Origin: Escherichia phage BAU.Micro_ELP-22
Sequence record: OR699282.2
Reading direction: 5' to 3' (one strand)
DNA: 64,000 bases
The position numbers and the translations under genes were made by a program. This document shows positions 1 through 64,000 of the stretch, piece by piece. The notes below the pieces were generated by a model. The model did not search any database and was not told the DNA's origin. It saw nothing but the letters and a program-made list of their open reading frames with translations. How positions within the stretch are numbered: the first letter of the stretch is position 1; every line of letters begins with the position of its first letter.

Positions 1-365
1 AGTAGGCAGAGGAAGTCTGCCGTACTTTGTAGTTTCCAAGCTCCTTTTCCATTTTTCAAATTACATCAAATGTAATCAAAAGTAATCACGCAATGATTAG
101 TACTGAATTATTACTTTCACCTTAATTTCAATTACCCCTTTACCCTTCGGGGTAAAATTCCATTACCCCTTGAGGCTCCAGCAAAAAGTTGGTTAGTACT
201 CCATCCTAAATCTCGATCCTAAAAATTTTGGAGTACCTATGAAATAAAAGTTGGATCTTCGAAAGTTGAAATTTACGTTGGGACGTTTATGATTTGTGGG
301 ATATAATGATGTTTGTAGTCGGGTAGTTCTCAAGAATATCAGTACTGAATGGTGAAAGAAAGTTA

Positions 366-393
366 TTGACATTATGATTCAGTACTGTATAAT
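366..393 (+). promoter_or_regulatory. sigma70-like promoter without downstream ORF
   Basis: TTGACA 366-371, 16-bp spacer with CAGTACTG, TATAAT 388-393. Confidence 0.45.
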
Positions 394-782
394 GTTCTAC
401 ATAGAGAGATGAGTTGCTGCGAACAATTCATTTACTCTACCTCCTGTCGTGAGACAGTACAGAAAAGATAGTTCCTCCTGTGGTGGTACATCTTTTTGAA
501 CCTCATATGAAAATCGTAATAACAGTACTGATATTAACAGAATGGTGTCAGTACTGATTTTAATCTAAATCATTATGCCACCAGCACAAGCTGGTGGATT
601 CCCTCTAACAGTATTCAGTACTACATGATAGTCTTCATCCTCCTAGGGTAACATAGTGAGGGCTATGATGGCAGTACTGAATACTCCCTTTCAAAAGATA
701 GATCTATGGTATAGTACTGACGGATTTTGGGTGTAGTTACCCTGGATGGATTTTGGGCGTAGATATGTCTAGCCCTCCAGAA

Positions 783-897
783 GTCTGGAAGTAAAGATGG
801 CTATCCATCTAGACGGCTAAACGGCTAGATTTCTGGATGGCTGGATGGCTAGACGTTTGGACGGCTAAACGGCTAGATGGTTACACGTCTGGAAGTA
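783..897. repeat. Short imperfect direct repeats
   Basis: ACGGCTAAACGGCTAGAT at 813-830 and 861-878; GTCTGGAAGTA at 783-793 and 887-897. Confidence 0.6.
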
Positions 898-1527
898 TAG
901 ACGGCTAAATCAAAATTTTATTTTGTTTTTTCCAATAGTTCCCCTACCGCGTGGGGATAGTTTCCCCGCAGTATCTGGTGTTAGATTTTTCTGAATCTGG
1001 AATCATTATCTTATAAACTGGGGGCAATGTCAACGACCTGGACGGATATTTTTAAAAATTTTTTCAGTACTGAATTTTGGGCGTAACTATGCACCCGGTG
1101 GGCTGGAGTCTTTCTCGACTTGATGGAACTATTATACAGTACTGGAAAAATAAAGCAATACCCTGGAAGCAAAAAAGTTTTAATTAATTTGCTTGCTATC
1201 CTGGGCCGGACTATGGTACTATAATTCAGTACTGAGAAAGTGCGTTTGCCTGCTAGGGTGCGGGAGTGTATCCTTTTTTTATATCTTGAATTTTGGGCGT
1301 AATTCCGCACCCTCTGGGGTTTCCGCTTTCTCGTGTCTATGTAGTAATTATACGCTTTTTCAGGATCAAGTCAATACCTAAAAACAAAATAATTGAAAAT
1401 AATTTAACGCGTTTAAACGGCCTGTAAAGCCCTGGAATGATTGGAATGGTGCAAATGTATAGCTTATGTGTATTAATGCGTTAGAATGCGTCTGAGGCCG
1501 TTTTTTGGGGTGTAGTAGTGATTTGGT

Positions 1528-1619
1528 TGATTCAGTACTGAATAATAGTACTCCTATATAGAAAGATAGTTCCCCTGGATTGATTCAGTACTGAATAATA
1601 GTACTCCTATATAGAAAGA
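1528..1619. repeat. Direct repeat, two copies of 39 bp
   Basis: TGATTCAGTACTGAATAATAGTACTCCTATATAGAAAGA at 1528-1566 and 1581-1619. Confidence 0.8.
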
Positions 1620-1645
1620 AAACTATTTTAAAAGTATTTGTAGAA

Positions 1646-1709
1646 AGTACTTGCACCGTACTGATAAAAGCGTATAATGTTTTACATCGAGAGCGGGAAC
1701 ACTTCCCGC
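1646..1709 (+). promoter_or_regulatory. Early promoter + stem-loop cassette (PeSL-like)
   Basis: AGTACT 1646-1651, -35 TTGCAC 1651-1656, -10 TATAAT 1673-1678, hairpin GCGGGAA-CAC-TTCCCGC 1693-1709. Confidence 0.7.
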
Positions 1710-1724
1710 TACACTTTAAAAGAG

Positions 1725-2096
1725 ATGAAAACGATGGCGACTCAAATCAATAAAATCATGCTTAACCTGGTAAACTTCCGCGATGAGATGAAAGGTCTTC
1801 CGGCTGAAACTGTAAAAATTCACATTGCAGCTTATCGGGAACTTATTGCAATGTTGCCGCTTAAGCGTGAACAATACGCCGCTACTTTGATGCTGGATTC
1901 AATGATCCATATAATGATCTCAAATGATTTGACGATGGTTTATCAGTATATGGGCGAAAATTTCGCGGTGTGTAGTAAGCCAGTACCAGGGATGGCAACA
2001 ACTGAGGAATTGCACGGCTTAAACTTAAAACAAGATGCATGGGATAATATGCCTCGTTTCCTGGTATGGGCTGACAGTGGCAAAATTTACAAATAA
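1725..2096 (+). CDS. hypothetical protein (123 aa)
   Basis: Track ORF 1677..2096 trimmed to first ATG after promoter/hairpin; SD-like AAGAG just upstream. Confidence 0.65.
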   Translation: MKTMATQINKIMLNLVNFRDEMKGLPAETVKIHIAAYRELIAMLPLKREQYAATLMLDSMIHIMISNDLTMVYQYMGENFAVCSKPVPGMATTEELHGLNLKQDAWDNMPRFLVWADSGKIYK

Positions 2097-2105
2097 GTTT
2101 AATAA

Positions 2106-2169
2106 AGTACTTGCATACTAAGTTAAAACAAGTATAATACTTTCTATCAGGTGGGGAATAGTTCCCCAC
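2106..2169 (+). promoter_or_regulatory. PeSL-like promoter cassette
   Basis: AGTACT 2106-2111, TTGCAT 2111-2116, TATAAT 2133-2138, hairpin GTGGGGAATAGTTCCCCAC 2151-2169. Confidence 0.7.
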
Positions 2170-2190
2170 TATAATTAAGAGATTAATTTT

Positions 2191-2424
2191 ATGAGTACTA
2201 TTTTAACTGTTTCTCAATCCGTTGCACTGACTGACCTATTAAACGCTTTAAGCCGTTGCACTGAGGTTGGCTTGTTTGATGTGGTTGACGTTGCACCGGA
2301 CGTTATTAATCATTTTTGTGATGCGATGGAAGAATGTAAGGAAGATGATAGCCGTATGATGGCGGTCGCCTTTGAGGAAGTACAGCCAGGTGAGATCAAA
2401 GGTTTACCAGTACTGAAAAAATAG
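2191..2424 (+). CDS. hypothetical protein (77 aa)
   Basis: ATG 2191 after SD-like AAGAG; downstream of PeSL 2106-2169. Confidence 0.7.
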   Translation: MSTILTVSQSVALTDLLNALSRCTEVGLFDVVDVAPDVINHFCDAMEECKEDDSRMMAVAFEEVQPGEIKGLPVLKK

Positions 2425-2486
2425 TACTTGCAAACTAAGTTTAAAAGCGTATAATGTTTTACATCAGGTGGGGAATAGTTCCCCAC
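2423..2486 (+). promoter_or_regulatory. PeSL-like promoter cassette
   Basis: AGTACT 2423-2428, TTGCAA 2428-2433, TATAAT 2450-2455, hairpin 2468-2486. Confidence 0.7.
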
Positions 2487-2506
2487 TATATAAGAGGATT
2501 AAAAAA

Positions 2507-2746
2507 ATGGCAAAATCAAAAATGTTCTTAGGTCACAAAAACAAAACTCATTGGAATGTAAGCCTGTGGATTAATAACGATGAGGGATTGTATCGGTTGG
2601 CCCTGGATTTTATTAACGACAACACTAATCGCAATGATGCGGCCCGTCATATGATGTTATTTTTAGAACAGACTGGACAAGATAAAACACCGGACGGATT
2701 CAAATATAGCACTACTGCGATCCGTGCGGCGATGGTTGGAATGTAA
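2507..2746 (+). CDS. hypothetical protein, early paralog family A (79 aa)
   Basis: Track ORF 2468 trimmed to ATG 2507 (SD AAGAGGA); paralog of 4620..4859 (GHKNKTHWNVSLWINN ... TPDGFKYSTTAIRAAMVGM). Confidence 0.7.
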   Translation: MAKSKMFLGHKNKTHWNVSLWINNDEGLYRLALDFINDNTNRNDAARHMMLFLEQTGQDKTPDGFKYSTTAIRAAMVGM

Positions 2747-2765
2747 TAGAATAGAATTTATTTAA

Positions 2766-2799
2766 AGTACTATCGCAAAAAATGATAGTACTTTATAAT
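2766..2799 (+). promoter_or_regulatory. Promoter-like site with AGTACT inverted repeat
   Basis: AGTACTATC...GATAGTACT inverted repeat 2766-2792, TATAAT 2794-2799; no clear -35. Confidence 0.45.
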
Positions 2800-2836
2800 A
2801 GTGTTTTATTCATACACCAACGATAAGGGCAACAGC

Positions 2837-3103
2837 ATGAATATTAAGTATTTTGCGACGCGTGAACAAGCTCGGATCGCCGCACGCCAGGACGGGGCAA
2901 CGTTTAAAGATATGGGCGTACAATCGGAACGTGGTAAACGTTGGGCCATTGTAAAGCGTAGTACCGCCAGATCATTACAGTACTGGTTAGCGGCCTTAAA
3001 AAGTCCCGATAGTGTATCGCGTCGAGTGGTAGAAATAAAGCTCGACCGAAAGGGCAACCGCGTGACCGTGTACCGTACTAAAAAGATTGCAGTACTTGAA
3101 TAA
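2837..3103 (+). CDS. hypothetical protein, early paralog family B (88 aa)
   Basis: Track ORF 2801 trimmed to ATG 2837; N-terminal YFATREQARIAAR..TFKDMG and C-terminal DRKGNRVTVY shared with 16025..16420. Confidence 0.65.
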   Translation: MNIKYFATREQARIAARQDGATFKDMGVQSERGKRWAIVKRSTARSLQYWLAALKSPDSVSRRVVEIKLDRKGNRVTVYRTKKIAVLE

Positions 3104-3105
3104 AA

Positions 3106-3169
3106 AGTACTTGCAAACTAAGTTTAAAAGCGTATAATGTTTTACATCGAGAGCGGGAACACTTCCCGC
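3106..3169 (+). promoter_or_regulatory. PeSL-like promoter cassette
   Basis: AGTACT 3106-3111, TTGCAA 3111-3116, TATAAT 3133-3138, hairpin GCGGGAACACTTCCCGC 3153-3169. Confidence 0.7.
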
Positions 3170-3190
3170 CTATAACCTGGAGTAATAAAA

Positions 3191-3421
3191 ATGACTAATA
3201 TGTATATGACTGAAGTTAAAACCGTAAAAGATACTACCACAAATAAAGTTACTTACTTACAGCGGATCTGTGGTGTATGGCAACGTATCAGCAAATCAAA
3301 GTACTTTAAATTAACATCATATGCAAACCGTTCGGATTCATTCAGTACTGAAATAAAAGGTAATAAAGTACACCAATATGGCACTTATTATTATTATAGC
3401 CTGGACGCGATTGCAGTATAA
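3191..3421 (+). CDS. hypothetical protein (76 aa)
   Basis: ATG 3191 with SD GGAG; follows PeSL. Confidence 0.7.
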   Translation: MTNMYMTEVKTVKDTTTNKVTYLQRICGVWQRISKSKYFKLTSYANRSDSFSTEIKGNKVHQYGTYYYYSLDAIAV

Positions 3422-3451
3422 GCAGTTTACAAATCTTTACAATTGCCGGTA

Positions 3452-3530
3452 TTGACTTATTTTGTCAGTACTGGCATAATGTATTCATTGGCAGATAAGC
3501 CGTAGCCCATAGGGTGCGGGAGTGTATCTA
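3452..3530 (+). repeat. Repeated intergenic element, type A (promoter-like + conserved GCCCAyAGGGTGC segment)
   Basis: TTGACT 3452-3457, CATAAT 3475-3480, then CATTG..AGATA..TAGCCCATAGGGTGCGGGAGTGTATCT; related copies at 10639, 14687, 17668, 19931. Confidence 0.6.
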
Positions 3531-3561
3531 TAGAAAAATTAGTTTAGTATAGTTACAATTG

Positions 3562-3625
3562 TGCACCCGGTGGGTTAGCTGTTGTCATGTGGTATATTAT
3601 GCCAGTACTTGATAATGCTGTCAAT
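3562..3625 (-). repeat. Repeated intergenic element, type B (minus-strand promoter-like + CTAACCCACCGGGTGC)
   Basis: Reverse complement reads TTGACA-17-CATAAT then ..CTAACCCACCGGGTGCAC; convergent with element at 3452-3530; similar to 5798-5869 and 12313-12388. Confidence 0.55.
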
Positions 3626-3665
3626 ACTTTTTTTTACTATTCAGTACTGAAAACTATTTTTAAAA

Positions 3666-3698
3666 AGTACTTGCAAACTATGTTTAAAGGCGTATAAT
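3666..3698 (+). promoter_or_regulatory. PeSL-type promoter driving a non-coding element
   Basis: AGTACT 3666-3671, TTGCAA 3671-3676, TATAAT 3693-3698. Confidence 0.65.
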
Positions 3699-3705
3699 GT
3701 TTTAC

Positions 3706-3780
3706 ATCAGGACGGGGAACGAAATAAGTAACTTCCCGTTAAGTAGCCCAGGAGTAAGGCACACGAAAAACTCCCCTGAT
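3706..3780 (+). ncRNA. Candidate small structured RNA (repeated about 75-nt element)
   Basis: Starts at predicted TSS; closing helix ATCAGG/CCTGAT plus internal helix ACGGGGAA/TTCCCGT; no ATG; second copy at 14831-14903 with substitutions and a 2-nt indel. Confidence 0.4.
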
Positions 3781-3788
3781 AAAATAGT

Positions 3789-3816
3789 TTGACAAATGTT
3801 TTTAAAAGCGTATAAT
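3789..3816 (+). promoter_or_regulatory. sigma70-like promoter
   Basis: TTGACA 3789-3794, 16-bp spacer, TATAAT 3811-3816. Confidence 0.6.
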
Positions 3817-3848
3817 ACTTACATCAACTACTGAATGAGGGTTACAAA

Positions 3849-4537
3849 ATGAAAACTATCACTACTACTACTTTCGTTATGGATTTTTCTGAATTGAACG
3901 CAGAACAAAAAACGTCAGCTATCGAACTGGTTCGGGAACGTGAAAAAAACTCAAACGACATTTTTCTGAATTGAACGCAGAACAAAAAACGTCAGCTATC
4001 GAACTGGTTCGGGAACGTGAAAAAAACTCAAACGACAATTATTTTTCTGAAAGTGAAATTGAATACTATAAAGAAACAGTACTACCGGAATATGGCATTA
4101 ATGACGCTGAAATACAATTCAGTGGTTTTTGGTCCCAGGGTGACGGTGCATCAATCAGTACTGACCACGTTGACGCAGTGAAGTTTTTACGCAAGGTAAG
4201 AGCATTAACTAAGTATCGCTCAATCCGTCACTTGCTGAATGAAGATGATTTGGCGATGAGTGTAAAGCGTTCGCACTCCCACTACTCGCATGAGAATACT
4301 GTAAGCGGGTACATTGAATCGGCTTACACTGATTTAACCGCAAAACAAGAAACGTTAGTTAATGAGCTTGAGGAACTACTCACTGAAACTATTCGTGAAT
4401 TGTCCCGCAAGTTGTACCGTGATTTAGAGAATGCATATGAGGATCAATTCACTACTGAAAACATTACGGCACTGATTGAGGGTAACGAGTATCAATTCAA
4501 TGTTATTGATGGCGTAGTGGAATCAATCGAATATTAA
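3849..4537 (+). pseudogene. Acidic hypothetical protein gene disrupted by a 77-bp perfect tandem duplication
   Basis: ATG 3849; units 3884-3960 and 3961-4037 identical; 77 is not a multiple of 3, so frame from 3849 stops at 3972-3974 and the remainder (3971..4537) lacks an ATG; removing one unit restores one ORF. Confidence 0.7.
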
Positions 4538-4544
4538 TTTAAAA

Positions 4545-4600
4545 AGTACTTGTTTAAAGGCGTATAATACTTTATATCGAGGCGGGGAGTGGTTCCCCGC
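4545..4600 (+). promoter_or_regulatory. Degenerate PeSL cassette (shortened spacer)
   Basis: AGTACT 4545-4550, TATAAT 4563-4568 but -35/-10 spacing collapsed relative to other copies; hairpin GCGGGGAGTGGTTCCCCGC 4582-4600. Confidence 0.4.
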
Positions 4601-4619
4601 TCAAACGAGGATTAAAAAA

Positions 4620-4859
4620 ATGGCTAGTACTAAAACTTACAACGGGCACAAAAACAAAACTCATTGGAATGTAAGCCTTTGGATTAATAACGGTGAGTCA
4701 TTGTATCGGCTTGCTCAAAGTTGCATCGCACAAAGTAGAACTAAAGATATTGCAGCGGAATGTATGTACCGCAGATTAAAAGCCAACGGTACTACTACAA
4801 CGCCGGACGGATTCAAATATAGCACTACTGCGATCCGTGCGGCGATGGTTGGAATGTAA
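4620..4859 (+). CDS. hypothetical protein, early paralog family A (79 aa)
   Basis: ATG 4620, SD GAGGA; paralog of 2507..2746. Confidence 0.7.
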   Translation: MASTKTYNGHKNKTHWNVSLWINNGESLYRLAQSCIAQSRTKDIAAECMYRRLKANGTTTTPDGFKYSTTAIRAAMVGM

Positions 4860-4916
4860 TATTCAGTACTGAGATAATGGCGGGTAATAGTTCCCGCCTT
4901 TACTGAGGGTTATCTA

Positions 4917-5204
4917 ATGAGTAAAGTAATAAAGTACAATGTGTTAAGCAAATCATTGTCTATCAGTGAATGCACCGATGGTTTTTGGATGTACGATGAA
5001 ACGCGTGGCATGAATTTAGCTATGCGTGCAAAAACTGCTGAGGCGGCGTATATTCAAGCACTGGAATACTACCAGGAACGTTTAAAGGAAGTAGAAGAAG
5101 ATTATAAAAGCCTCAAAGCGAAAGTAGATCATTTCGTCGGTCAATTCGTGGAAGACAACGACGAGGACGGGCACTACTGCGACCGTTGCGGATCTTACAG
5201 TTAA
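4917..5204 (+). CDS. hypothetical protein (95 aa), C-terminal Cys pair
   Basis: ATG 4917, SD GAGGG; start context CTGAGGGTTATCTAATGAGT repeated at next gene. Confidence 0.65.
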   Translation: MSKVIKYNVLSKSLSISECTDGFWMYDETRGMNLAMRAKTAEAAYIQALEYYQERLKEVEEDYKSLKAKVDHFVGQFVEDNDEDGHYCDRCGSYS

Positions 5205-5221
5205 GTACTGAGGATTATCTA

Positions 5222-5425
5222 ATGAGTGATTTAATCGACCGCATCAAAGAGCTTGAAGAAAAAGAATTGCAGTTGATCGGGTTACGGAATAAAGTATTCC
5301 ATGATTTAGGTGGCTTTATTAATGCCTGGGATAGTGGCGATCCTGATGCGTTACCTGCTAACCGCCAGGCGATGATCAATGATGTGCGTGGTGTCTTTGA
5401 GTATGTTTTAAAGCAATTAAATTAA
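5222..5425 (+). CDS. hypothetical protein (67 aa)
   Basis: Track ORF 5186 (TTG) trimmed to ATG 5222; SD GAGGA. Confidence 0.65.
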   Translation: MSDLIDRIKELEEKELQLIGLRNKVFHDLGGFINAWDSGDPDALPANRQAMINDVRGVFEYVLKQLN

Positions 5426-5428
5426 AAA

Positions 5429-5492
5429 AGTACTTGCAATTAGTTTTCAGTACTGTATAATGGTTTACATCAAAGGGAGAAATGGTTCTCCC
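5429..5492 (+). promoter_or_regulatory. PeSL-like promoter cassette
   Basis: AGTACT 5429-5434, TTGCAA 5434-5439, TATAAT 5456-5461, hairpin GGGAGAAATGGTTCTCCC 5475-5492. Confidence 0.7.
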
Positions 5493-5511
5493 TGGTAATG
5501 AGGAAAATAAA

Positions 5512-5733
5512 ATGGCAAATATCACTACTCTTTCCCAACTGGAAGCACTGGTTAAATCTATGCGGGAACATGCCGACAAAATCGGCGTACAAGATCCAGC
5601 CGTTTGCTTCTGCGACGAATTGAATGATGATACCCTGGTAATAGCAGAAGTCCAGGACGTTTCTAACTATTCCTCGCGTTACACTGGCGGCGTAGCAAAT
5701 AAAGGTGACTTCTGTTTATACCTTACAAAATAA
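5512..5733 (+). CDS. hypothetical protein (73 aa)
   Basis: Track ORF 5482 trimmed to ATG 5512; SD GAGGAA. Confidence 0.7.
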   Translation: MANITTLSQLEALVKSMREHADKIGVQDPAVCFCDELNDDTLVIAEVQDVSNYSSRYTGGVANKGDFCLYLTK

Positions 5734-5738
5734 CAACG

Positions 5739-5768
5739 CGGGGAGATAATAACTCCCCGTTACTTTTT
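5739..5768 (+). terminator. Rho-independent terminator
   Basis: Stem CGGGGAG/CTCCCCG 5739-5759 with loop ATAATAA, then TTACTTTTTC. Confidence 0.65.
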
Positions 5769-5797
5769 CAGTACTGAATCATTTAATAGACGGATCT

Positions 5798-5869
5798 CGG
5801 CACCCGGTGGGTTAGTGACTGTTTCGTCTTGATGTAGTAATTATGCCAGTACTGGATGCACTTGTCAAC
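5798..5869 (-). repeat. Repeated intergenic element, type B
   Basis: Reverse complement: TTGACA-17-CATAAT then ACATCAAGACGAAACAGTCACTAACCCACCGGGTGC. Confidence 0.55.
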
Positions 5870-5901
5870 AACTATTTTTCAAATACTTTTTATTAAAATA
5901 C

Positions 5902-5954
5902 TTGCTAATAGTTTTTAAACGCGTATAATGTTTTGCATAGGGGAGCGGTTCCCC
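5902..5954 (+). promoter_or_regulatory. PeSL-like promoter cassette
   Basis: TTGCTA 5902-5907, TATAAT 5924-5929, hairpin GGGGAGCGGTTCCCC 5940-5954. Confidence 0.65.
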
Positions 5955-5975
5955 TGGTAACTAAGGAATAAGAAA

Positions 5976-6212
5976 ATGCTTGAACAAATCAAATCAACGT
6001 CTGCTAATGTAACGGGAACGGTATCACACTTTATTGGTGATGAATCGCGGGGCGTTCCCTATTGTGCTGTACATGTAAACACTGAGGGTAACTACTGGTT
6101 TACGGTTTACGGATCATATTCATTTGGACGGCCAGGGCATCAAAAAATTCTGGATAAAGTACAGCCAACGGGTAAAAATATCACGGCTGAAATGTTTTAT
6201 AAAAAATCATAA
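5976..6212 (+). CDS. hypothetical protein (78 aa)
   Basis: ATG 5976, SD AAGGAA. Confidence 0.7.
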   Translation: MLEQIKSTSANVTGTVSHFIGDESRGVPYCAVHVNTEGNYWFTVYGSYSFGRPGHQKILDKVQPTGKNITAEMFYKKS

Positions 6213-6276
6213 AGTACTTGATAATAGTTTTTAGTACTGTATAATATTTTACATAGCACGGGGGAGCGGTTCCCCC
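6213..6276 (+). promoter_or_regulatory. PeSL-like promoter cassette
   Basis: AGTACT 6213-6218, TTGATA 6218-6223, TATAAT 6240-6245, hairpin GGGGGAGCGGTTCCCCC 6260-6276. Confidence 0.7.
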
Positions 6277-6296
6277 TGGTAACTAAGGATAATCAA

Positions 6297-6596
6297 ATGA
6301 AAATTGCAATCATCGCCCTGGCTTTATCTGTTTCCTCTTTCGCTGTTAATGCGTCGTTAGATGTGAGTAGTGAAAAATTCATTCAGTGCACTGTTGCGAT
6401 GACCAATGAAAGTACGGGCGAGATTGTTTTAAAGGATTTAGAGATCCAGCCACAAGCATTTAAAAACGGGCCGTTCCATGAAGAAGACGAAAACGGTAGC
6501 ACAACCATTTACTATGATGCCAGTACTAAACGCGGTTCGGTCACGGTTATGGATACTGAGAAAGTAACTCATACAGGCGTTATTAATTGCCGTTGA
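6297..6596 (+). CDS. small secreted/periplasmic protein (99 aa) with N-terminal signal peptide
   Basis: MKIAIIALALSVSSFAVNA-SLD: basic N-terminus, hydrophobic core, AxA-like cleavage motif; SD AAGGA. Confidence 0.65.
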   Translation: MKIAIIALALSVSSFAVNASLDVSSEKFIQCTVAMTNESTGEIVLKDLEIQPQAFKNGPFHEEDENGSTTIYYDASTKRGSVTVMDTEKVTHTGVINCR

Positions 6597-6617
6597 TTGA
6601 TACTACGGGGTAACATC

Positions 6618-6848
6618 ATGACAGCACGAATAGTTTTACTTAACGAAAGCAGTACTACACAACTACTTAACGCCGTGCATTATGATATTGAAACGAGCGT
6701 TAATCTTATCAGTACTGTCGTACTGTTGGACACTGGAAAGGTCGCCAATGATAAAGCGATTGCAGGTATACTAACGGATCTTGAGCCTGGTAGCAGTGCA
6801 CCAATAACGTTAAATGGTAAAGTGTTTAACATTTTACTTACTGATTAA
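6618..6848 (+). CDS. hypothetical protein (76 aa)
   Basis: Track ORF 6597 trimmed to ATG 6618 (GGGG upstream); immediately follows 6297..6596. Confidence 0.55.
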   Translation: MTARIVLLNESSTTQLLNAVHYDIETSVNLISTVVLLDTGKVANDKAIAGILTDLEPGSSAPITLNGKVFNILLTD

Positions 6849-6854
6849 GTACAT

Positions 6855-6883
6855 AGCCCACCTGGTGGGCTTTTTTGTTTTTG
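6855..6883 (+). terminator. Rho-independent terminator
   Basis: AGCCCACC..GGTGGGCT stem followed by TTTTTTGTTTTTG. Confidence 0.7.
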
Positions 6884-6930
6884 TAGTATCGTAGTACTGA
6901 GATACTTTGAAAATAGTTTTAAAAAAGTAG

Positions 6931-6958
6931 TTGACATTACCGCAGAAAAGCGTAGAAT
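6931..6958 (+). promoter_or_regulatory. sigma70-like promoter
   Basis: TTGACA 6931-6936, 16-bp spacer, TAGAAT 6953-6958. Confidence 0.6.
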
Positions 6959-6965
6959 GTATTAC

Positions 6966-7027
6966 ATCAAGACGGGGAGCACTAAGTAGACCGCCAGTAA
7001 GTCGAACGAAAAACTGGACACGTCGAG
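6966..7027 (+). ncRNA. Diverged third copy of the candidate structured RNA element
   Basis: ATCAAGACGGGGAGC..AAGTAG..CAGTAAG..ACGAAAAACT resembles 3706-3780 and 14831-14903; no ORF. Confidence 0.3.
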
Positions 7028-7081
7028 AAAACTTTGATACACTAATAAACGTAAACTAAACTTTAATTGAGGATTTATAAA

Positions 7082-7564
7082 ATGGCTAATGTAAAATCAT
7101 TCATCAAAGCACTGGTAGCAAATGAAACTAACGTCGCGGCTGAGATCCTGGCTGAACTGGATAACGATACCATGAAAGCGGTACGCAATAATTTTAACAT
7201 CGCGTACAGTACTGCGAAAGAACTACAAGCAAATAAAGCGGCAGAAATTGAAGCGGCAAAGGCGGCCCGTGAAGCAGAACTACAAGCAACAATCGAAAGT
7301 ATTCAGGCGGCAGTAGTTGGATTGGATCTGGAAGTAGTTACAGAGATGGCACAAAAAGCCCTGGCGGTTAAGTATGGGGAAGACAAGCCAGAAGTAAAAG
7401 CCAAAAAATGGATTCAGGAACGCGTAGCGGTAGTACTGGACAACGGGGAAGAATATCTGATTCCGGTGCGTGGTAACTGTATTGCGGTAGTACTGGACGC
7501 GATTAACTCCAGTGGTATGACTCGCGAGGAATGGATCGAAGCTCATCGCAAAGTTGAAGCATAA
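7082..7564 (+). CDS. hypothetical protein (160 aa), Ala/Glu-rich helical N-terminus
   Basis: Track ORF 7067 trimmed to ATG 7082, SD GAGGA; followed by strong terminator. Confidence 0.7.
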   Translation: MANVKSFIKALVANETNVAAEILAELDNDTMKAVRNNFNIAYSTAKELQANKAAEIEAAKAAREAELQATIESIQAAVVGLDLEVVTEMAQKALAVKYGEDKPEVKAKKWIQERVAVVLDNGEEYLIPVRGNCIAVVLDAINSSGMTREEWIEAHRKVEA

Positions 7565-7585
7565 CAATTAAAGTACTGAATCACT

Positions 7586-7613
7586 AGCCCACCTTAAACG
7601 GTGGGCTTTTTTG
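7586..7613 (+). terminator. Rho-independent terminator
   Basis: AGCCCACC-TTAAAC-GGTGGGCT then TTTTTTG. Confidence 0.8.
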
Positions 7614-7761
7614 TGTTTATCGTTTACCAGGCCACCAGCACCGCCTAGAAACGATTCTAACGCATTAAACTGATTATCTGATGCATTGCCCTAGCTGGTG
7701 GCGTTAAGGTCGTTGTAATGCGATTGAGAGCGTTTAAAGTATTTTGCAAAAAGTAATAAAA

Positions 7762-7822
7762 AGTACTTGCACGATTAAGAGATTAGCGTATAATGTTTTA
7801 CATCGAGAGGGGGAAACGGTTC
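7762..7822 (+). promoter_or_regulatory. PeSL-like promoter cassette
   Basis: AGTACT 7762-7767, TTGCAC 7767-7772, TATAAT 7789-7794, hairpin in GAGAGGGGGAAACGGTTCTCC. Confidence 0.65.
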
Positions 7823-7849
7823 TCCTTCCAAATCAAAGGAATCAAAACA

Positions 7850-8077
7850 ATGGCTATTATCATTACTCGCGTATCTGGTACTACTGGCAACGAACAAGTA
7901 GTTGCAGTCATTACCAACAAGGAAGGTGCGGAATTGCAAAATGCAATGAATACCTGGGCCGTTAATGAGTTCGGTCAGTGGGCAAGTGTAGCATACATTG
8001 AAACCTATCAAGTGCCGTCGATTAGTTTAACTGATTTGGGCGTTGAGCGTATCCTTTGCCTGGATGAATTAAATTAA
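7850..8077 (+). CDS. hypothetical protein (75 aa)
   Basis: Track ORF 7793 (starts inside promoter) trimmed to ATG 7850; SD AAGGAA. Confidence 0.7.
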   Translation: MAIIITRVSGTTGNEQVVAVITNKEGAELQNAMNTWAVNEFGQWASVAYIETYQVPSISLTDLGVERILCLDELN

Positions 8078-8080
8078 AAA

Positions 8081-8145
8081 AGTACTTGCAAAGTAAATCG
8101 AATAAAGTATAATACATTACATCAAGGGGAGAAATGATTCTCCCC
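8081..8145 (+). promoter_or_regulatory. PeSL-like promoter cassette
   Basis: AGTACT 8081-8086, TTGCAA 8086-8091, TATAAT 8108-8113, hairpin GGGGAGAAATGATTCTCCCC 8126-8145. Confidence 0.7.
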
Positions 8146-8162
8146 ACTACAAGGAAACTAAT

Positions 8163-8306
8163 ATGAAAACTTGTCAATGTGGTCAGAAATCTATTACTGG
8201 TTTAAAGCGGGGCGTTGCTCTTTGCCAGTACCATTATAATTTACAAGTATGGGGTAAAGAATGGGCCGACCAGGTGGAAGCAGCAAAGAAAGCAAAAAGT
8301 AAGTAA
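8163..8306 (+). CDS. small Cys-containing protein (47 aa), not in ORF track
   Basis: ATG 8163 after SD AAGGAA and PeSL; MKTCQCGQ...CQYHY possible metal-binding Cys cluster; stop 8304-8306. Confidence 0.5.
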   Translation: MKTCQCGQKSITGLKRGVALCQYHYNLQVWGKEWADQVEAAKKAKSK

Positions 8307-8318
8307 AAATATTATCAC

Positions 8319-8354
8319 AGTACTATTGACATAGTTTGATAGTACTGGCATAAT
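8319..8354 (+). promoter_or_regulatory. Class-II promoter (AGTACT-TTGACA ... AGTACT-CATAAT), no stem-loop
   Basis: AGTACT 8319-8324, TTGACA 8326-8331, AGTACT 8341-8346, CATAAT 8349-8354; near-identical at 11513-11548. Confidence 0.65.
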
Positions 8355-8397
8355 AGATTTTATCAAAACGACACATATTAATTTAAGGAATACCAAA

Positions 8398-8721
8398 ATG
8401 GCTAAAACTATCATCAACACCGTTTCCCTGGCTGCAATCCGTGCAATCAATGTTGACGGTAAACGTTGGACTGATTCATATGGCAATACTTATCATTCTT
8501 GTCATGTAAGCGTTGAACTGGATAACGGTTTGAATGATCTGGCGGTTGAATCATTTACTTATGGCTATGAAGATGCATATCAACAAACGGCGTTTGATCT
8601 CTTAAAGGAATCAGTAGACGGGCTTGATACTGTTGAAACCTCCCTTACTCGTTTATGTAATGATTTGTCTATCCCGTTGCATTGTACTGTACAGAATGTT
8701 AAACGTAAAAAAGATCTTTAA
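8398..8721 (+). CDS. hypothetical protein, early paralog family C (107 aa)
   Basis: ATG 8398, SD AAGGAA; shares RWTDSxGNTYHSC and DVKRKKD with 15606..15929. Confidence 0.7.
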   Translation: MAKTIINTVSLAAIRAINVDGKRWTDSYGNTYHSCHVSVELDNGLNDLAVESFTYGYEDAYQQTAFDLLKESVDGLDTVETSLTRLCNDLSIPLHCTVQNVKRKKDL

Positions 8722-8801
8722 TTAGCTTTACTTTATGCAGATACTTTGATATAGTGTCTGCATAGGGGAAAGAAATTAAATTAACTTAAGAGGATAGTAT
8801 A

Positions 8802-9071
8802 ATGAAAAATATCAGTACTTTAATCGATGCAGGTACACATGTTCGTCGGTCTATGGTTACAACCAGTACTACAAAACAAGTAGCAAGCGGTTATCTTGTA
8901 TTTGTGCACGATGGAAAACTCCTGGAACGTTCAATCAATTTTGATGTTAAAAACAATTGCCGTTTTATTATCTTTAAGCGTGAACAATATAAAATCGATT
9001 TACCAGCGAAGCCCATAAGCGGGGCGTACAACGTGCAATCATTGTTTGAGCGTCAACCATACACCTATTAA
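8802..9071 (+). CDS. hypothetical protein (89 aa)
   Basis: ATG 8802, SD AAGAGGA; imperfect palindrome ATGCAGATA...TGTCTGCAT upstream (8736-8765). Confidence 0.65.
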   Translation: MKNISTLIDAGTHVRRSMVTTSTTKQVASGYLVFVHDGKLLERSINFDVKNNCRFIIFKREQYKIDLPAKPISGAYNVQSLFERQPYTY

Positions 9072-9122
9072 TCAAAACATCGTTAGCGGTCGATTCAGGC
9101 CGCTTATATTGGGGATTATACC

Positions 9123-9395
9123 ATGAACGTTAATCAAGTACTGAATGAGATCGAAAGCATCATTAAACCGATGAAGCGTACTGATGCTATGTTAACACCG
9201 GAAGAATGCCGCCTTTATGAGCGTTACAGCGTCGAACAAGTCCAGGCAATGGCTATGGCTACCCCAGCCGTTAAACCGCCTGAGAATGCGTTACAGGACG
9301 TTACAGGGGATTATATCATTAATCCAGTACTAGGGAAGATGGCTGCAATCACCGAAGATCAACAAGACTACTTAAGCCAGTACTTAAAAGGTTAA
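9123..9395 (+). CDS. hypothetical protein (90 aa)
   Basis: ATG 9123, SD GGGG. Confidence 0.6.
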   Translation: MNVNQVLNEIESIIKPMKRTDAMLTPEECRLYERYSVEQVQAMAMATPAVKPPENALQDVTGDYIINPVLGKMAAITEDQQDYLSQYLKG

Positions 9396-9400
9396 TTAAT

Positions 9401-9610
9401 ATGCTTACTGTACAGGATAAGATCGACATCTTAAAGGTTAATATGTATGTGATTGATGCAGTACCTGGTAAAGTATTTGCATACGATGACACTACTGTAA
9501 GCAATTTCTACTATAGCCAGGACGTGGGGGATCTTTCTGTACAGTCGGTTATTGAAAACGTAGTTAATGCAGCGTATGAGCATTTACTTTCAAATAGTAC
9601 TTGCAATTAG
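9401..9610 (+). CDS. hypothetical protein (69 aa)
   Basis: ATG 9401 tightly following previous gene; last codons overlap the -35 of the next PeSL. Confidence 0.6.
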   Translation: MLTVQDKIDILKVNMYVIDAVPGKVFAYDDTTVSNFYYSQDVGDLSVQSVIENVVNAAYEHLLSNSTCN

Positions 9611-9660
9611 TTTTTAAACGCGTATAATGTTTTACATGAAGGGGAGAAATGATTCTCCCC
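9596..9660 (+). promoter_or_regulatory. PeSL-like promoter cassette
   Basis: AGTACT 9596-9601, TTGCAA 9601-9606, TATAAT 9623-9628, hairpin GGGGAGAAATGATTCTCCCC 9641-9660. Confidence 0.7.
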
Positions 9661-9679
9661 ACTAATTAAGGAATATGAA

Positions 9680-9826
9680 ATGAAAGCATCAAAAAAGAGT
9701 AATACTAAGAAAGCACGTTCAACCTTAGATGGGGTATTCCCTTTACGTTTCGTTGATGAAGTAGTTTCCTACCCGCCGGGCCTTACTCCTGAGATGGTAG
9801 AAAGTTTGCGTAAATCTAAAAAATAG
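9680..9826 (+). CDS. small basic protein (48 aa), not in ORF track
   Basis: ATG 9680 with SD AAGGAA at 7-nt spacing, directly after PeSL; Lys/Arg-rich. Confidence 0.5.
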   Translation: MKASKKSNTKKARSTLDGVFPLRFVDEVVSYPPGLTPEMVESLRKSKK

Positions 9827-9885
9827 TACTTGCAATTAGTTTTTAGTACTGTATAATAGTTTACATGAAGGGGAAAACGTTCCCC
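9825..9885 (+). promoter_or_regulatory. PeSL-like promoter cassette
   Basis: AGTACT 9825-9830, TTGCAA 9830-9835, TATAAT 9852-9857, hairpin GGGGAAAACGTTCCCC 9870-9885. Confidence 0.7.
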
Positions 9886-9908
9886 TTACACCTAACGAGG
9901 AAAGTATA

Positions 9909-10160
9909 ATGGAAACAATTTTAATCAAAGACACTGCTACTACTGTAACTTATGATAATGATTGCATTATCCCAGGGACTGAGTACGGCGAACGTGTACC
10001 CGTTCAAGTAGAGATTGATACCACATACATCGACAAGGCTGACCAGTGTATCACTATTGTAATTGGTGAATATCGTTTTCTACCAGAAGAGATCCAAAAA
10101 TGGCAGAATATGATTGACCGTGCGAAATTAGTCGCACAAAGTTTAAAATACAAAGTTTAA
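9909..10160 (+). CDS. hypothetical protein (83 aa)
   Basis: ATG 9909, SD GAGGAAAG. Confidence 0.7.
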   Translation: METILIKDTATTVTYDNDCIIPGTEYGERVPVQVEIDTTYIDKADQCITIVIGEYRFLPEEIQKWQNMIDRAKLVAQSLKYKV

Positions 10161-10163
10161 AAT

Positions 10164-10228
10164 AATACTTGCAATTAGTTTTTAGTACTGTATAATGTTT
10201 TACATGAAGGGGAGAAATGATTCTCCCC
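10164..10228 (+). promoter_or_regulatory. PeSL-like promoter cassette
   Basis: TTGCAA 10169-10174, TATAAT 10191-10196, hairpin GGGGAGAAATGATTCTCCCC 10209-10228. Confidence 0.7.
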
Positions 10229-10246
10229 AATAACAGGAGAAACAAA

Positions 10247-10399
10247 ATGAAACAATACAACGCTCGGTTTGATGTTACTATCGGTAACGGCAAAGGTCAA
10301 TTCTCTTTCAGTACTCGCCGCAGTTATACAGAAAACTTCCTGCGTAATTGTGCACTGACCGCCGCTCAAATTAAACATTATTTTCAGGCTAAAAAATGA
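10247..10399 (+). CDS. hypothetical protein (50 aa)
   Basis: Track ORF 10217 trimmed to ATG 10247; SD AGGAGA. Confidence 0.6.
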   Translation: MKQYNARFDVTIGNGKGQFSFSTRRSYTENFLRNCALTAAQIKHYFQAKK

Positions 10400-10485
10400 G
10401 ATCATTAGCTTATTACAGTTCGGCCCTGGTCGGTGCATTGATCGCGGCGTTGTTAGTAACCTATCTATTCTTTATGGTGATTTAA
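10396..10485 (+). CDS. tiny hydrophobic peptide (29 aa), candidate membrane peptide
   Basis: ATG 10396 overlaps upstream stop (ATGA); single hydrophobic stretch SALVGALIAALLVTYLFFMVI. Confidence 0.4.
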   Translation: MRSLAYYSSALVGALIAALLVTYLFFMVI

Positions 10486-10629
10486 ATGAATCCAACAGGT
10501 TTAAACTATAAAAGTTGTTCGGCATTTACGAAAGCAAATAAAGCGAATGCACGTAAAGCGAAAGTACAGGAATACATCAAGCAAGGCATGACGCGAAAGG
10601 CGGCGATTCTAAAAGCTAAAAATAAATGA
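10486..10629 (+). CDS. small basic protein (47 aa)
   Basis: ATG 10486 directly after TAA of preceding peptide; Lys-rich; not in ORF track. Confidence 0.35.
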   Translation: MNPTGLNYKSCSAFTKANKANARKAKVQEYIKQGMTRKAAILKAKNK

Positions 10630-10638
10630 AAAAAGTGG

Positions 10639-60769: not shown

Positions 60770-61291
60770 ATGTCGAAGAAGGATGCTTCGAAAAAACATT
60801 CAGTACATTTTAGTACTGGTAAAGATAACTGGACAACTCCAAAAGATTTCTTTGAAGAGTTAGATGAGTTATGGGGATTTACGCTTGATGCTGCTTGTGT
60901 TGATGAGACTGCATTATGTGAGAATTATTTTACACCAAATGATGATTCTCTTTCACAGGATTGGGGAAAGAATATAGTTTGGTTGAACCCTCCATATAGT
61001 GATTTGAAAACATGGTTATCTAAAGCAGTAGATGCGTATAATAAAGGAGCAACTGTATTAATTCTTGTACCATCAAGAACGGATACTATAGCCTTTCAGG
61101 ATTATGCTGCGAAAGTTTGTGATTGTATTTGTTTTATTAAGGGAAGGTTACGATTTGGTATCCCAGAAGAACCAGAGAAGAAAACAGATTCAGCACCATT
61201 TCCTTCGTGTCTGATAGTACTGGATAAGTACTTAACCACTGCTAAAATCAATTATCTTAAATCTCTTGGATTGGTGATGAAGAATTTATGA
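60770..61291 (+). CDS. dam: DNA N6-adenine methyltransferase, phage Dam type (173 aa)
   Basis: FTLDAAC...VWLNPPYS: target-binding/catalytic NPPY motif and overall layout typical of small phage Dam methylases; SD AAGGAA. Confidence 0.8.
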   Translation: MSKKDASKKHSVHFSTGKDNWTTPKDFFEELDELWGFTLDAACVDETALCENYFTPNDDSLSQDWGKNIVWLNPPYSDLKTWLSKAVDAYNKGATVLILVPSRTDTIAFQDYAAKVCDCICFIKGRLRFGIPEEPEKKTDSAPFPSCLIVLDKYLTTAKINYLKSLGLVMKNL

Positions 61292-62117: not shown

Positions 62118-62397
62118 TGAAATAAATCTTACAGGATATTTTTTACAAGAATCAATGATTAAATTTAGTGATAAATTTTCAGTACTGGATGGTATCGAAA
62201 TGTGGCATGTCAAACCACTGTTCCACACTTTCAGTAAAGAGCACAAAATGTTATTGACTGAAGCGAGTAAATCAAATAACATATGTGAAATCAAAATTGG
62301 TGTAAATGTCTATAAAGGGATGGTTATCTTTTTTGACAATAACAGCAACTACTTTTATATTGTTAAGGAGCATTACGTTGACAAATACAAATACTAA
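62110..62397 (+). CDS. hypothetical protein (95 aa)
   Basis: Track ORF 62098 (TTG) trimmed to ATG 62110; overlaps upstream gene by 8 nt. Confidence 0.55.
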   Translation: MCDEINLTGYFLQESMIKFSDKFSVLDGIEMWHVKPLFHTFSKEHKMLLTEASKSNNICEIKIGVNVYKGMVIFFDNNSNYFYIVKEHYVDKYKY

Positions 62398-62992
62398 TAC
62401 ATACTTCCGTTATCTTCGCTTAGGTCTTTCCCTACGTCCGATCCGTGGAAAGTGCGATTCACTCGCTGACCTTGACTATGCATATGCATTACATCATGAA
62501 GGTGTACAGTATGTATTGGGTGATTATGGTGAATTTGAAGAAACAAATGACAGTACTGGAATTAATGCTGGTGTAGAAAATCTTAACAACATTGCTAACA
62601 GTTCTCGCCATGACATTGTGTTACAGATTCAAAACTTTATTGAGCAGCACACAGGTAAACGTGTTTGGTGCTATGTCGGTACTGATGCACAAATGTCAAT
62701 TTCATTCGGTAACGATGAAGGATATGTTGCACAGCTTATTATGGATTTTGAATCTGAAGAGAAGTTTTTAGAATTCAAAGAAAAGATTATTCAGTCACTT
62801 GTTGATATGGGTATCCCCGAAGATAAAATGCCAGAAGTTCAAAACATTGATGAATTTGTTTTGATTCCATCTGATGAGAAATATGATGCAATGTTTACTG
62901 CCCTTAATATTCCAGGAGTTATTGTGGAGTACTTTGATGATGGTGATGATAGTATCTATATCGATCTAGATGACGATGACGACGATGAATAA
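62378..62992 (+). CDS. acidic hypothetical protein (204 aa), poly-Asp C-terminus, probable TTG start
   Basis: TTG 62378 preceded by SD AAGGAG at 7 nt; C-terminus DDGDDSIYIDLDDDDDDE. Confidence 0.55.
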   Translation: MTNTNTNTYFRYLRLGLSLRPIRGKCDSLADLDYAYALHHEGVQYVLGDYGEFEETNDSTGINAGVENLNNIANSSRHDIVLQIQNFIEQHTGKRVWCYVGTDAQMSISFGNDEGYVAQLIMDFESEEKFLEFKEKIIQSLVDMGIPEDKMPEVQNIDEFVLIPSDEKYDAMFTALNIPGVIVEYFDDGDDSIYIDLDDDDDDE

Positions 62993-62998
62993 TGTACA

Positions 62999-63027
62999 TA
63001 GCCCGACATAAGTTCGGGCTATTTTTG
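62999..63027 (+). terminator. Rho-independent terminator
   Basis: TAGCCCGA-CATAAGT-TCGGGCTA then TTTTTG. Confidence 0.8.
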
Positions 63028-63038
63028 TAAGGGGATAT

Positions 63039-63314
63039 ATGAATTATAAAGTTCTACAATATACATACAGTGTTTTGTTTGATTTACATCACAATGGAAG
63101 ATATCTCAATACAATACGAGAAAACACATTCACTCATACTATCTGGATTAATCACTTAATAATGATACGTGAATATTTTGTTAATAGTGAGATAATCATT
63201 CGTGGTAAAAAACAGAAGATAGAACAAGTTAATAGTTTTGGTGGTAAATTAGTACTATCATTTATAGATAGTAATACTAATGAAAGATATAGTATAGATT
63301 TGGTGGACATATGA
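63039..63314 (+). CDS. tandem family F3 paralog (91 aa)
   Basis: MNYKVLQYTYSVLFDLHHNG; SD GGGGA. Confidence 0.6.
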   Translation: MNYKVLQYTYSVLFDLHHNGRYLNTIRENTFTHTIWINHLIMIREYFVNSEIIIRGKKQKIEQVNSFGGKLVLSFIDSNTNERYSIDLVDI

Positions 63315-63577
63315 ATTATAAAGATTTCCTACTAACATACAAGATTATTCGAGATTTAGCACACGACAATGATAGCCCTAGTCTAGAAGACACATGCACT
63401 GAAATGATTCATACAATTCGTGGTAAGATTAAAAAAAAATTCAGTACTGTTATTATTGGTGATGACCATGCAGAATTTTCTGATATAATCATTAGACGTG
63501 ATGGTAAAGTTGAGGTTCAGTACTACACTGATTTTGGATTTACCAGTATTCCGTTGGAGATATTCCCTTGGGATTAA
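63311..63577 (+). CDS. F3 paralog (88 aa)
   Basis: ATGA overlap; MNYKDFLLTYKIIRDLAHDN. Confidence 0.6.
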   Translation: MNYKDFLLTYKIIRDLAHDNDSPSLEDTCTEMIHTIRGKIKKKFSTVIIGDDHAEFSDIIIRRDGKVEVQYYTDFGFTSIPLEIFPWD

Positions 63578-63879
63578 ATTTAAATGATATACAATTCACT
63601 TATAAGATCCTATATGATTTGTATGATGTATACCTTGTTAGTAACAAAATAGGTTCACATAACCCATACAAAGAACAACCATTTATTGATTTATATATTG
63701 AGTACTTAGATTCAGTAGGTGAATATATAAAAAAGAATTACAGTACTTTTATCGATGGAAATGATAAATTCGATTTCTATGGTGTGCAATCATATAATGG
63801 TATAATCCATGTTCAATTTCAGGAAATAACCGATAGGGGATTTATCGAGATTAAAGTTGTGAAGTTGGTGAATTTATAA
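63568..63879 (+). CDS. F3 paralog (103 aa), no in-frame ATG (TTG start?)
   Basis: LNDIQFTYKILYDLYDV; TTG 63568 with SD GGAGA upstream; may be decaying. Confidence 0.45.
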   Translation: MGLNLNDIQFTYKILYDLYDVYLVSNKIGSHNPYKEQPFIDLYIEYLDSVGEYIKKNYSTFIDGNDKFDFYGVQSYNGIIHVQFQEITDRGFIEIKVVKLVNL

Positions 63880-63889
63880 GAGGTTACAT

Positions 63890-64000
63890 ATGTTATTAAA
63901 TGATATACAATTCACATACAAATTTTTGTATATCCAATACGCTACGGTTGATGCTGGAGAATATCTCTACAGTGAAATCTATCGTTCGGTATGGATAAAG
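63890..64000 (+). CDS. F3 paralog, 5' partial (runs off window)
   Basis: ATG 63890; MLLNDIQFTYKFLY matches previous gene. Confidence 0.55.
   Translation, partial: MLLNDIQFTYKFLYIQYATVDAGEYLYSEIYRSVWIK

Follow-up and report, generated by a model that had tools for sequence, protein, structure and literature searches.

The highly iterated palindrome HIP1 (GCGATCGC) and the alternate highly iterated palindromes of cyanobacteria are short words of unknown function, whose statistical behaviour (PMC4390886, PMC5861425) is the same as that of the hexamer described here. Other short words, such as the Chi sites of RecBCD and the DNA uptake sequences of Neisseria and Haemophilus, also occur at high density and separate own from foreign DNA. 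On the scale of a single operator, the YefM dimer reads a hexamer with a TGTACA core (PMC1802561), so small dimers are able to read such a hexamer. The present work deals with the palindrome AGTACT in 64,000 nucleotides of Escherichia phage BAU.Micro_ELP-22 (sequence record OR699282.2), hereafter called the window and numbered from its first base. Within positions 1-64,000 it is found 255 times, as dispersed copies with a mean of one per 251 bp.

AGTACT ranks first by frequency among the 4096 hexamers of the window and is the top outlier against Markov models of orders 1 and 3. The expected numbers are 21.4 (order 0), 17.1 (order 1), 45.2 (order 2), 98.3 (order 3) and 214 (order 4), which corresponds to a 12-15 fold enrichment over the two simplest models and to a 2.6 fold enrichment over order 3. 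An earlier note, made from the letters alone, had claimed a strong over-representation and had staked it on the third-order expectation; the excess at that order is indeed large (z of about 16). The z-score falls to 2.8 at order 4, an expectation which is circular since the pentamers AGTAC and GTACT arise from the hexamer itself. The word is also exact. Of its 18 single-mismatch variants, 17 stay at background and only AGTACA is raised (114 copies for 25 expected). Over the whole window, AGTAC is followed by T in 255 of 397 cases and GTACT is preceded by A in 255 of 314, and the other palindromes of the NGTACN type do not follow (GGTACC 0, CGTACG 0, TGTACA 42 for 29 expected). The unit of selection is thus the palindrome AGTACT. 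Its flanks are weak, with C at -1 in 106 and G at +6 in 124 of the 255 copies and nothing informative further out, and nearly every site lies in a unique context. Since the flanks carry so little information, the copies are dispersed words and not fragments of a longer repeat.

The coding sequences provide a stringent control. The sites are distributed over the three codon phases (66/45/59), with 73 others in noncoding DNA. The coding sequences of the + strand contain 170 copies, compared with 52.5 +/- 5.8 after within-gene synonymous shuffling (3.2 times) and 21 +/- 4.5 after codon permutation (8 times), so that AGTACT is favoured through the choice of codons as well as through the order of amino acids. 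The same synonymous shuffling applied to the arrays at 37-64 kb leaves 25.4 +/- 4.6 copies where 94 are observed. The abundance inside genes mentioned in the earlier note is thus confirmed; its idea that a FQYST protein core often encodes CAGTACAGTACT was wrong in degree, this string being present only twice. A codon, peptide, paralogue or repeat artefact is ruled out by the phases, by the synonymous and codon shuffles and by the unique contexts.

Comparison with related genomes leads to the same conclusion. The window and phage fEgEco12 are 91% identical over aligned DNA, and 209 of the 237 aligned AGTACT sites (88%) are intact, for a baseline of 65% over all hexamers and 72% over the hexamers within 30 bp of the sites. 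The sites are under purifying selection. At larger distance, 38 pairs of orthologues between fEgEco12 and Klebsiella phage RaK2 (61% amino-acid and 67% nucleotide identity) contain 64 and 65 copies, respectively. Eighteen of these coincide in codon and phase, for 0.17 expected under independent placement and about 6 from 0.67^6. The density is held between genera while about 70% of the positions turn over. The functional class of site proposed in the earlier note is well supported by these results, together with the presence of the word in all phases and its excess over synonymous shuffles; the promoter placement that it also described concerns no more than some 10% of the sites, as detailed below.

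The distribution of the copies follows the layout of the window. Towards its two ends (first 20 kb, last 24 kb) the window is 93-98% identical to Asteriusvirus genomes (PBECO4, 121Q, G17, fEgEco12 and others). Asteriusvirus comprises Rak2-like jumbo coliphages of 350-380 kb. Base 1 of the window aligns to base 1 of fEgEco12, from which the window is taken to be the left genome end, starting with a terminal repeat of about 21 kb; in fEgEco12 this direct terminal repeat was experimentally determined to be 20,993 bp long (PMC13070987). Judging from this alignment, the window consists of the left direct terminal repeat (1-21,300, + strand, the boundary at about 21.3 kb being approximate), followed by small early gene arrays. 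Nearly all genes are on the + strand. In the terminal repeat, every one of the small early genes has a sigma-70-type promoter of its own, and the motif is denser than anywhere else in the window, with 137 sites, of which 69 lie within only 5.6 kb of noncoding DNA (12.3 per kb, compared with 4.3 per kb in coding DNA). Further right, the small early gene arrays at 36,990-64,000 (+ strand), which encode a superfamily with a FQxSLV core and other proteins, contain 100 sites, nearly all of them in coding sequence and in all three phases; the density there is about 3.9 per kb over 37-64 kb. Two stretches are devoid of AGTACT, at 21,272-26,071 and at 28,727-36,999.

In the terminal repeat, 33 sigma-70-like promoters were found, and 23 of them carry AGTACT, as counted by eye. 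Two positions are preferred. In 12 of the 33 promoters, AGTACT stands directly upstream of the -10 element, in the arrangement TTGACA-N9-AGTACTG-TATAAT, the site being at -7 from the -10 hexamer. An example with the motif in the spacer, beside the -10, is found at 11,207-11,235 (+ strand), and the same AGTACTG-TATAAT layout recurs at 366, 5434, 6218, 9830, 10169, 11790, 13943, 14912, 15252, 15521 and 18098. In 9 of the 33 promoters, the last T of AGTACT is also the first T of the -35 element, which places the site at -27 from the start of the -10 hexamer. This overlap is illustrated by AGTAC-TTGCAA at 2423-2455 (+ strand), and the layout is seen at 2428, 3111, 3671, 5434, 6218, 8086, 9601, 9830 and 10772. 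Four of the 33 promoters read TTGACAGTACT. Where both positions are filled, the two copies are 20-22 bp apart, i.e., about two helical turns. The fixed placement at the -35 and beside the -10, which the earlier note had described, is thus real, and as read from the promoter sequences it fits an operator-like role. Some of the AGTACT promoters are near-duplicates of one another. A role as promoter element only is ruled out, since the fixed positions hold about 25 of the 255 sites and the structural-gene regions of fEgEco12 still contain about 2 copies per kb. Another promoter-like module, TTGACT-CCGGTCAG(C/T)C(A/C)(T/C)TTTGC-TATTAT, is present in four copies on the + strand (10,639; 14,677; 17,668; 19,931) and does not include AGTACT; the enrichment of CCGGAC, CCGGTC and ACCGGA is probably due to the CCGGTCAG module.

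The excess is not restricted to this genome. The 350 kb of fEgEco12 contain 946 copies, with between 96 and 204 in every 50 kb, the regions of structural and replication genes among them, and the 350 kb of ECO103 4-12-1 contain 918. AGTACT is also the top hexamer in 50 kb of RaK2 (119 copies for 12 expected) and in 50 kb of Yersinia phage fHe-Yen9-04 (111 for 13 expected), and 30 kb of Cronobacter phage GAP32 contain 67 copies. There is no excess in Pseudomonas phage PA5oct (3 copies in 50 kb, 14 expected), in T4 (3 in 25 kb, 4.6 expected) or in Escherichia coli K-12 (3 in 50 kb, 4.7 expected). The phage density of about 2.7 per kb, or one copy per about 370 bp, is about 45-fold that of the 50 kb E. 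coli K-12 sample (0.06 per kb). On these counts, the excess is a trait of the enterobacterial Rak2-like clade, over four genera, and not of the host generally. A scan of IMG/VR for clustered AGTACT returned mostly local repeats or chance matches. All eight of the dense, dispersed loci that were checked there also lack GCGC and thus resemble pieces of genomes from this clade; in two other loci (L052 and L131), AGTACT is only about 2.3 times more frequent than in shuffles. A literature search found no paper linking AGTACT or ScaI sites to Rak2-like jumbo phages, and a function for this word, with its about 950 copies per genome, is apparently unreported.

This rise of one palindrome takes place in a genome from which others have been removed. 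The earlier note had opposed the AGTACT excess to the usual avoidance of palindromes by phages, and the contrast holds: 26 of the 64 six-base palindromes are missing from the window, for a total of about 107 copies expected. The tetramer GCGC is also absent (43 expected). It is absent from all the Rak2-like loci sampled, which amount to more than 1 Mb from Asteriusvirus, RaK2, fHe-Yen9-04 and GAP32, in four genera (loci L001-L016, L018-L020 and L022), and is found at normal levels in PA5oct (47 per 50 kb), T4 (38 per 25 kb) and E. coli (342 per 50 kb). In its phylogenetic range this ban coincides with the AGTACT excess. This genome is under very strong word-level selection, AGTACT being the one palindrome pushed upward. 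Milder deviations were observed for other words, with some depletion of GATC (0.69), CTAG (0.53) and AGCT (0.69), a 2.5-fold enrichment of CCWGG, and 22 copies of CCCTGG for 2.6 expected.

The second AGTACT-free stretch revealed a further constraint. On the sense strand, the trinucleotide ACT is completely missing from 28,729-36,930 (+ strand), an island of 8,201 bp and about 20 genes; elsewhere its density is about 19 per kb, and the longest of the other runs without it measures 422 bp. The product of island length and ACT rate is 154, a value that does not exceed about 20 for any other trinucleotide. AGT is normally represented in the island (204 copies). The island genes already avoid ACT as a codon, and after synonymous shuffling they would contain 46 +/- 5 out-of-frame ACT for none observed; codon order is therefore arranged to avoid it. 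The island is not defined by a gene family, since the superfamily that fills it also spans its neighbours: dozens of proteins of 100-210 amino acids, encoded at 27,500-56,000, share a loose (E/D)x(F/L)FQxSL(V/I)xD core and form one very large diverged superfamily. The same ACT-free island is present in fEgEco12 (29,019-37,312), although 1,363 aligned positions differ from those of the window. The divergent Asteriusvirus ph0011 shows only a partial ban, with about 3 ACT per kb, and no such island was found in the homologous region of RaK2. For ECO103 4-12-1 and the 150-350 kb part of fEgEco12, the analysis covered motif counts only. To our knowledge, there is no earlier report of a natural multi-gene block recoded without one trinucleotide, and both the GCGC ban and the ACT-free island appear to be undescribed.

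Since ACT is absent from the sense strand, there is no AGTACT inside the island. AGTACA is found there instead in 43 copies, or 5.2 per kb, for 3.8 copies expected, in all phases and with a density matching that of AGTACT next door, and AGTACC and AGTACG are present once each. What favours AGTACT thus also tolerates AGTACA where the last T is banned. The other strand of the island still contains 45 GTACT. A ban that is frame-independent and strand-specific points to an enzyme reading single strands, and two candidates are possible, namely an immunity to an ACU-cutting endoribonuclease or a strand that a primase cannot prime. The other AGTACT-free stretch (21,272-26,071, + strand) is of a different kind, with tandem paralogues of 70-85 amino acids, from a 21-member family at 21,506-27,255 with about 36% identity. 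The paralogues encoded to the left of 26.0 kb are without AGTACT and those to the right carry it. This stretch contains 8 copies of TGTACT for 1.2 expected, which may lie at a position conserved from one paralogue to the next.

The reading that we favour, with a probability of about 0.4, is that AGTACT is a selected DNA word read by a putative, probably phage-encoded factor, which would serve both as a mark of phage DNA and in the control of early promoters. AGTACT is in this view a genome-wide iterated palindrome, an exact and dyad-symmetric word that would be read on double-stranded DNA. Its reader would be peculiar to enterobacterial Rak2-like jumbo phages and would most likely be a small phage-encoded dimeric protein or enzyme, marking or organising phage DNA. 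Selection keeps about one copy per 250-450 bp over a chromosome of about 350 kb, by way of synonymous codons and even of amino acids, and a factor bound at the -35 or beside the -10 would touch RNA polymerase and could switch early transcription. A dimeric reader of duplex DNA is favoured because of the exactness of the word, its palindromic coupling, the selection on its density, its clade specificity and its operator-like placement in promoters.

Several observations weigh against such a factor. A Pfam survey of 121 window proteins detected no recognisable DNA-binding domain, and thus no reader; its matches were limited to Dam, a ParE-like toxin domain, a DksA/TraR zinc finger, GNAT and DUF domains. 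The spacing of the copies is close to random, near exponential with a coefficient of variation of 0.8-1.07, and there is no regular structural array; a role based on regular structural spacing is ruled out on this ground. In the early gene arrays (27,000-56,000), outside the island as well, the AGTACA excess is restricted to the sense strand: at 37-64 kb, AGTACA is found 44 times for 24 after synonymous shuffling, and its complement TGTACT 11 times for 12.5. The corresponding figures for the early arrays of RaK2 (245-295 kb) are roughly 90 and 30, by our own summing. A symmetric reader of duplex DNA does not predict this strand bias. Finally, the total GCGC ban would already tell phage from host DNA, and a second self mark is not obviously needed.

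A broader proposal, which we regard as rather doubtful in its entirety, would unite the three constraints in a sequence-encoded self/non-self system, with AGTACT as self word, the GCGC purge and the ACU-less block taking the place of a T4-like base hypermodification. A phage machine reading AGTACT may guide transcription, replication or protection from nucleases towards phage DNA, host DNA alone would be open to destruction by a nuclease directed at GCGC, and the mRNAs of the ACU-less block would survive an ACU-cutting ribonuclease.

Among the explanations that compete with a dimeric reader, the one that survives best, although it is itself unlikely, is that AGTACT is the target of an orphan phage DNA methyltransferase, the methylated sites being used for protection, timing or strand discrimination. 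These phages indeed encode a Dam-family enzyme and a small C5-cytosine methylase. The former, a PF05869 N6-adenine DNA methyltransferase, is found at 60,770-61,291 (+ strand; gp088 in RaK2) and is the only DNA-modifying enzyme encoded in the window, which makes it a candidate reader of AGTACT. As far as is known, the characterised PF05869 enzymes are either GATC-specific or non-specific, and neither the Dam-family enzyme nor the C5 methylase has a predicted AGTACT specificity. The cyanobacterial highly iterated palindromes each go with a cognate methyltransferase (PMC4390886), and a ScaI-type site is tolerated here while 26 other palindromes are purged. The DNA of RaK2 was reported to be methylated, but on cytosine at CpG (PMC3622015), a dinucleotide that AGTACT does not contain. 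The DNA of fEgEco12 is cut as predicted by ten enzymes, including EcoRI, HindIII and ClaI, none of which recognises AGTACT or GTAC (PMC13070987); it is thus not broadly adenine-methylated. These are the only published digests for a close relative, and neither a ScaI or RsaI digest nor a methylome turned up in the literature consulted. Protection alone would leave the 12-fold enrichment unexplained. A drive by deamination or short-patch repair, as proposed for HIP1, can be rejected, since its footprint is missing: neither AGTATT (67 copies, 42 expected) nor AATACT (47, 39 expected) is depleted, and C/T substitutions at position 5 do not predominate where AGTACT sites differ from one relative to another.

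The strand-specific ACT ban suggests another explanation, which seems to us quite improbable, in which a T4-type primase reads 5'-ACT-3', with a cryptic 3' T and a start on C, and prefers 5'-AGTACT-3', yielding the primer pppGUACU. The T4 primase site is GCT, from which ACT differs by one base. As judged from the sequence, ACT would fit the pattern of a primase site (three bases on one strand, of which the middle one is a pyrimidine and the 3' one is cryptic), and the length of the hexamer equals one cryptic base plus the pentaribonucleotide primer of the T4-family primases. The palindrome would then give both strands a start site at one place. This explanation has the merit of joining AGTACT with the frame-independent ban, one-strand trinucleotide specificity being a hallmark of primases, and it would account for the need for AGTACT everywhere, on both strands and in coding and noncoding DNA alike, as well as for the GTACT kept on the other strand of the island. 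However, given ACT, the 5' half AGT becomes a 1-in-64 coincidence. If ACT alone, at about 20 per kb, were sufficient, there would be no need for hexamer enrichment, and if the hexamer were required, the ban on every ACT would be superfluous. Moreover, the fixed promoter positions are not explained, and RaK2 has the AGTACT excess but no ACT-free island.

It is even less probable that the word acts in RNA, an RNA-binding protein or an endoribonuclease reading AGUACU (with AGUACA as second best) in phage transcripts and thereby setting the lifetimes of the mRNAs, and the DNA palindrome being incidental. The sense-strand excess of AGTACA in the early arrays of two genera, the maximal AGTACT density in early transcripts and the ban on ACT (ACU) on the sense strand go in this direction, and there is an enterobacterial precedent, since MazF-SEA from Salmonella cuts U^ACU well and UACA poorly (PMC10864209). 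Yet the genes are nearly all on one strand, so that an RNA word need not be a palindrome in DNA, and the palindrome is what is selected. Many copies lie upstream of the transcription starts, in -35 and spacer DNA, and a ribonuclease site enriched in every gene, late structural genes included, would bring no obvious benefit.

The possibility that the phage collects the sites of a host DNA-binding protein, such as the nucleoid-occlusion factor SlmA, in order to titrate or recruit it, appears remote. It would agree with the occurrence of the excess in phages of Escherichia, Klebsiella, Yersinia and Cronobacter and not in the Pseudomonas relative, and it predicts that SlmA or another protein of uninfected E. 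coli would bind CAGTACTG duplexes. The 12-bp site of SlmA, GTGAGTACTCAC, has a core identical to AGTACT, but its flanks are wrong here: G at -1 is found in only 21 and C at +6 in only 13 of the 255 copies, less often than any other base at these positions, no site matches more than three of the six flanking positions, and GAGTACTC does not occur at all. SlmA sites are thus ruled out by the flanks and LexA sites by the wrong order of the half-sites, and T4, which grows on the same host, has no excess. Least credible of all is the absence of any function, in which the excess would simply result from mutation bias, from the usage of codons or dipeptides, from promoter duplication and from gene paralogy. 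Near-identical copies do exist among the promoter modules, paralogue families abound in the window, and the (circular) order-4 model nearly absorbs the excess (214 for 255). Absence of function is nonetheless contradicted by the three phases, by the synonymous and codon-permutation expectations, by unique contexts, by conservation above that of the flanks, by neighbouring words that are not raised and by the same density across genera at 67% nucleotide identity.

Two other observations concern the terminal repeat. An early protein of 84 amino acids encoded at 16,482-16,736 (+ strand) matches the ParE-like toxin domain PF24732 (E 6e-11); no relative of it was found in the PDB by sequence. As a predicted member of the RelE/ParE superfamily, it may poison gyrase or act as an endonuclease on mRNA. 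In addition, 13 Campylobacter phage records have megablast matches to the terminal-repeat region (window 1-20,000).

Iterated palindromes have been studied in cyanobacteria for decades with no proven function, and the same statistical behaviour in a lytic phage would provide a far more tractable system, one that grows on a culturable E. coli host, completes its life cycle quickly and has about 950 sites, and for which PA5oct and T4 are clear negative controls. It offers a phage genome sculpted both ways, with one palindrome raised 12-fold and 26 others as well as GCGC erased, and it bears on how phages with unmodified DNA distinguish their own DNA from that of the host. It also bears on host-range prediction and phage engineering, since synonymous recoding would destroy or create AGTACT words.

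How does AGTACT compare with the systems described so far? Restriction-site avoidance is extreme in this same genome, as seen from the missing palindromes and from GCGC, and AGTACT is its opposite, a ScaI-type site that is enriched. With the Phd/YefM type of repressor, the common points would be a small dimer, a six-base NGTACN palindrome over promoter elements and paired sites on one helix face. The outer bases are however T..A in the YefM site and A..T in AGTACT, a handful of sites in one operator contrasts with about 950 per genome, and the Pfam survey detected no Phd/YefM domain among 121 window proteins. Chi and the DNA uptake sequences are likewise short exact words at high density which separate own from foreign DNA, and the about 45-fold higher density of AGTACT in the phage than in the E. 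coli sample is of this type. They are asymmetric and have known readers, whereas AGTACT is palindromic and far denser. The statistically closest known thing is HIP1, another exact short palindrome, at least 10-fold over-represented genome-wide, present within genes in any frame and between genes, conserved between relatives above background and variable by lineage; AGTACT likewise shows an at least 10-fold excess genome-wide, frame independence and conservation above background. The differences are that HIP1 has 8 bp, is GC-rich and belongs to a cellular chromosome, whereas AGTACT has 6 bp, is AT-rich, belongs to a lytic phage, has no evident cognate methyltransferase and is wired into early promoters at fixed positions.

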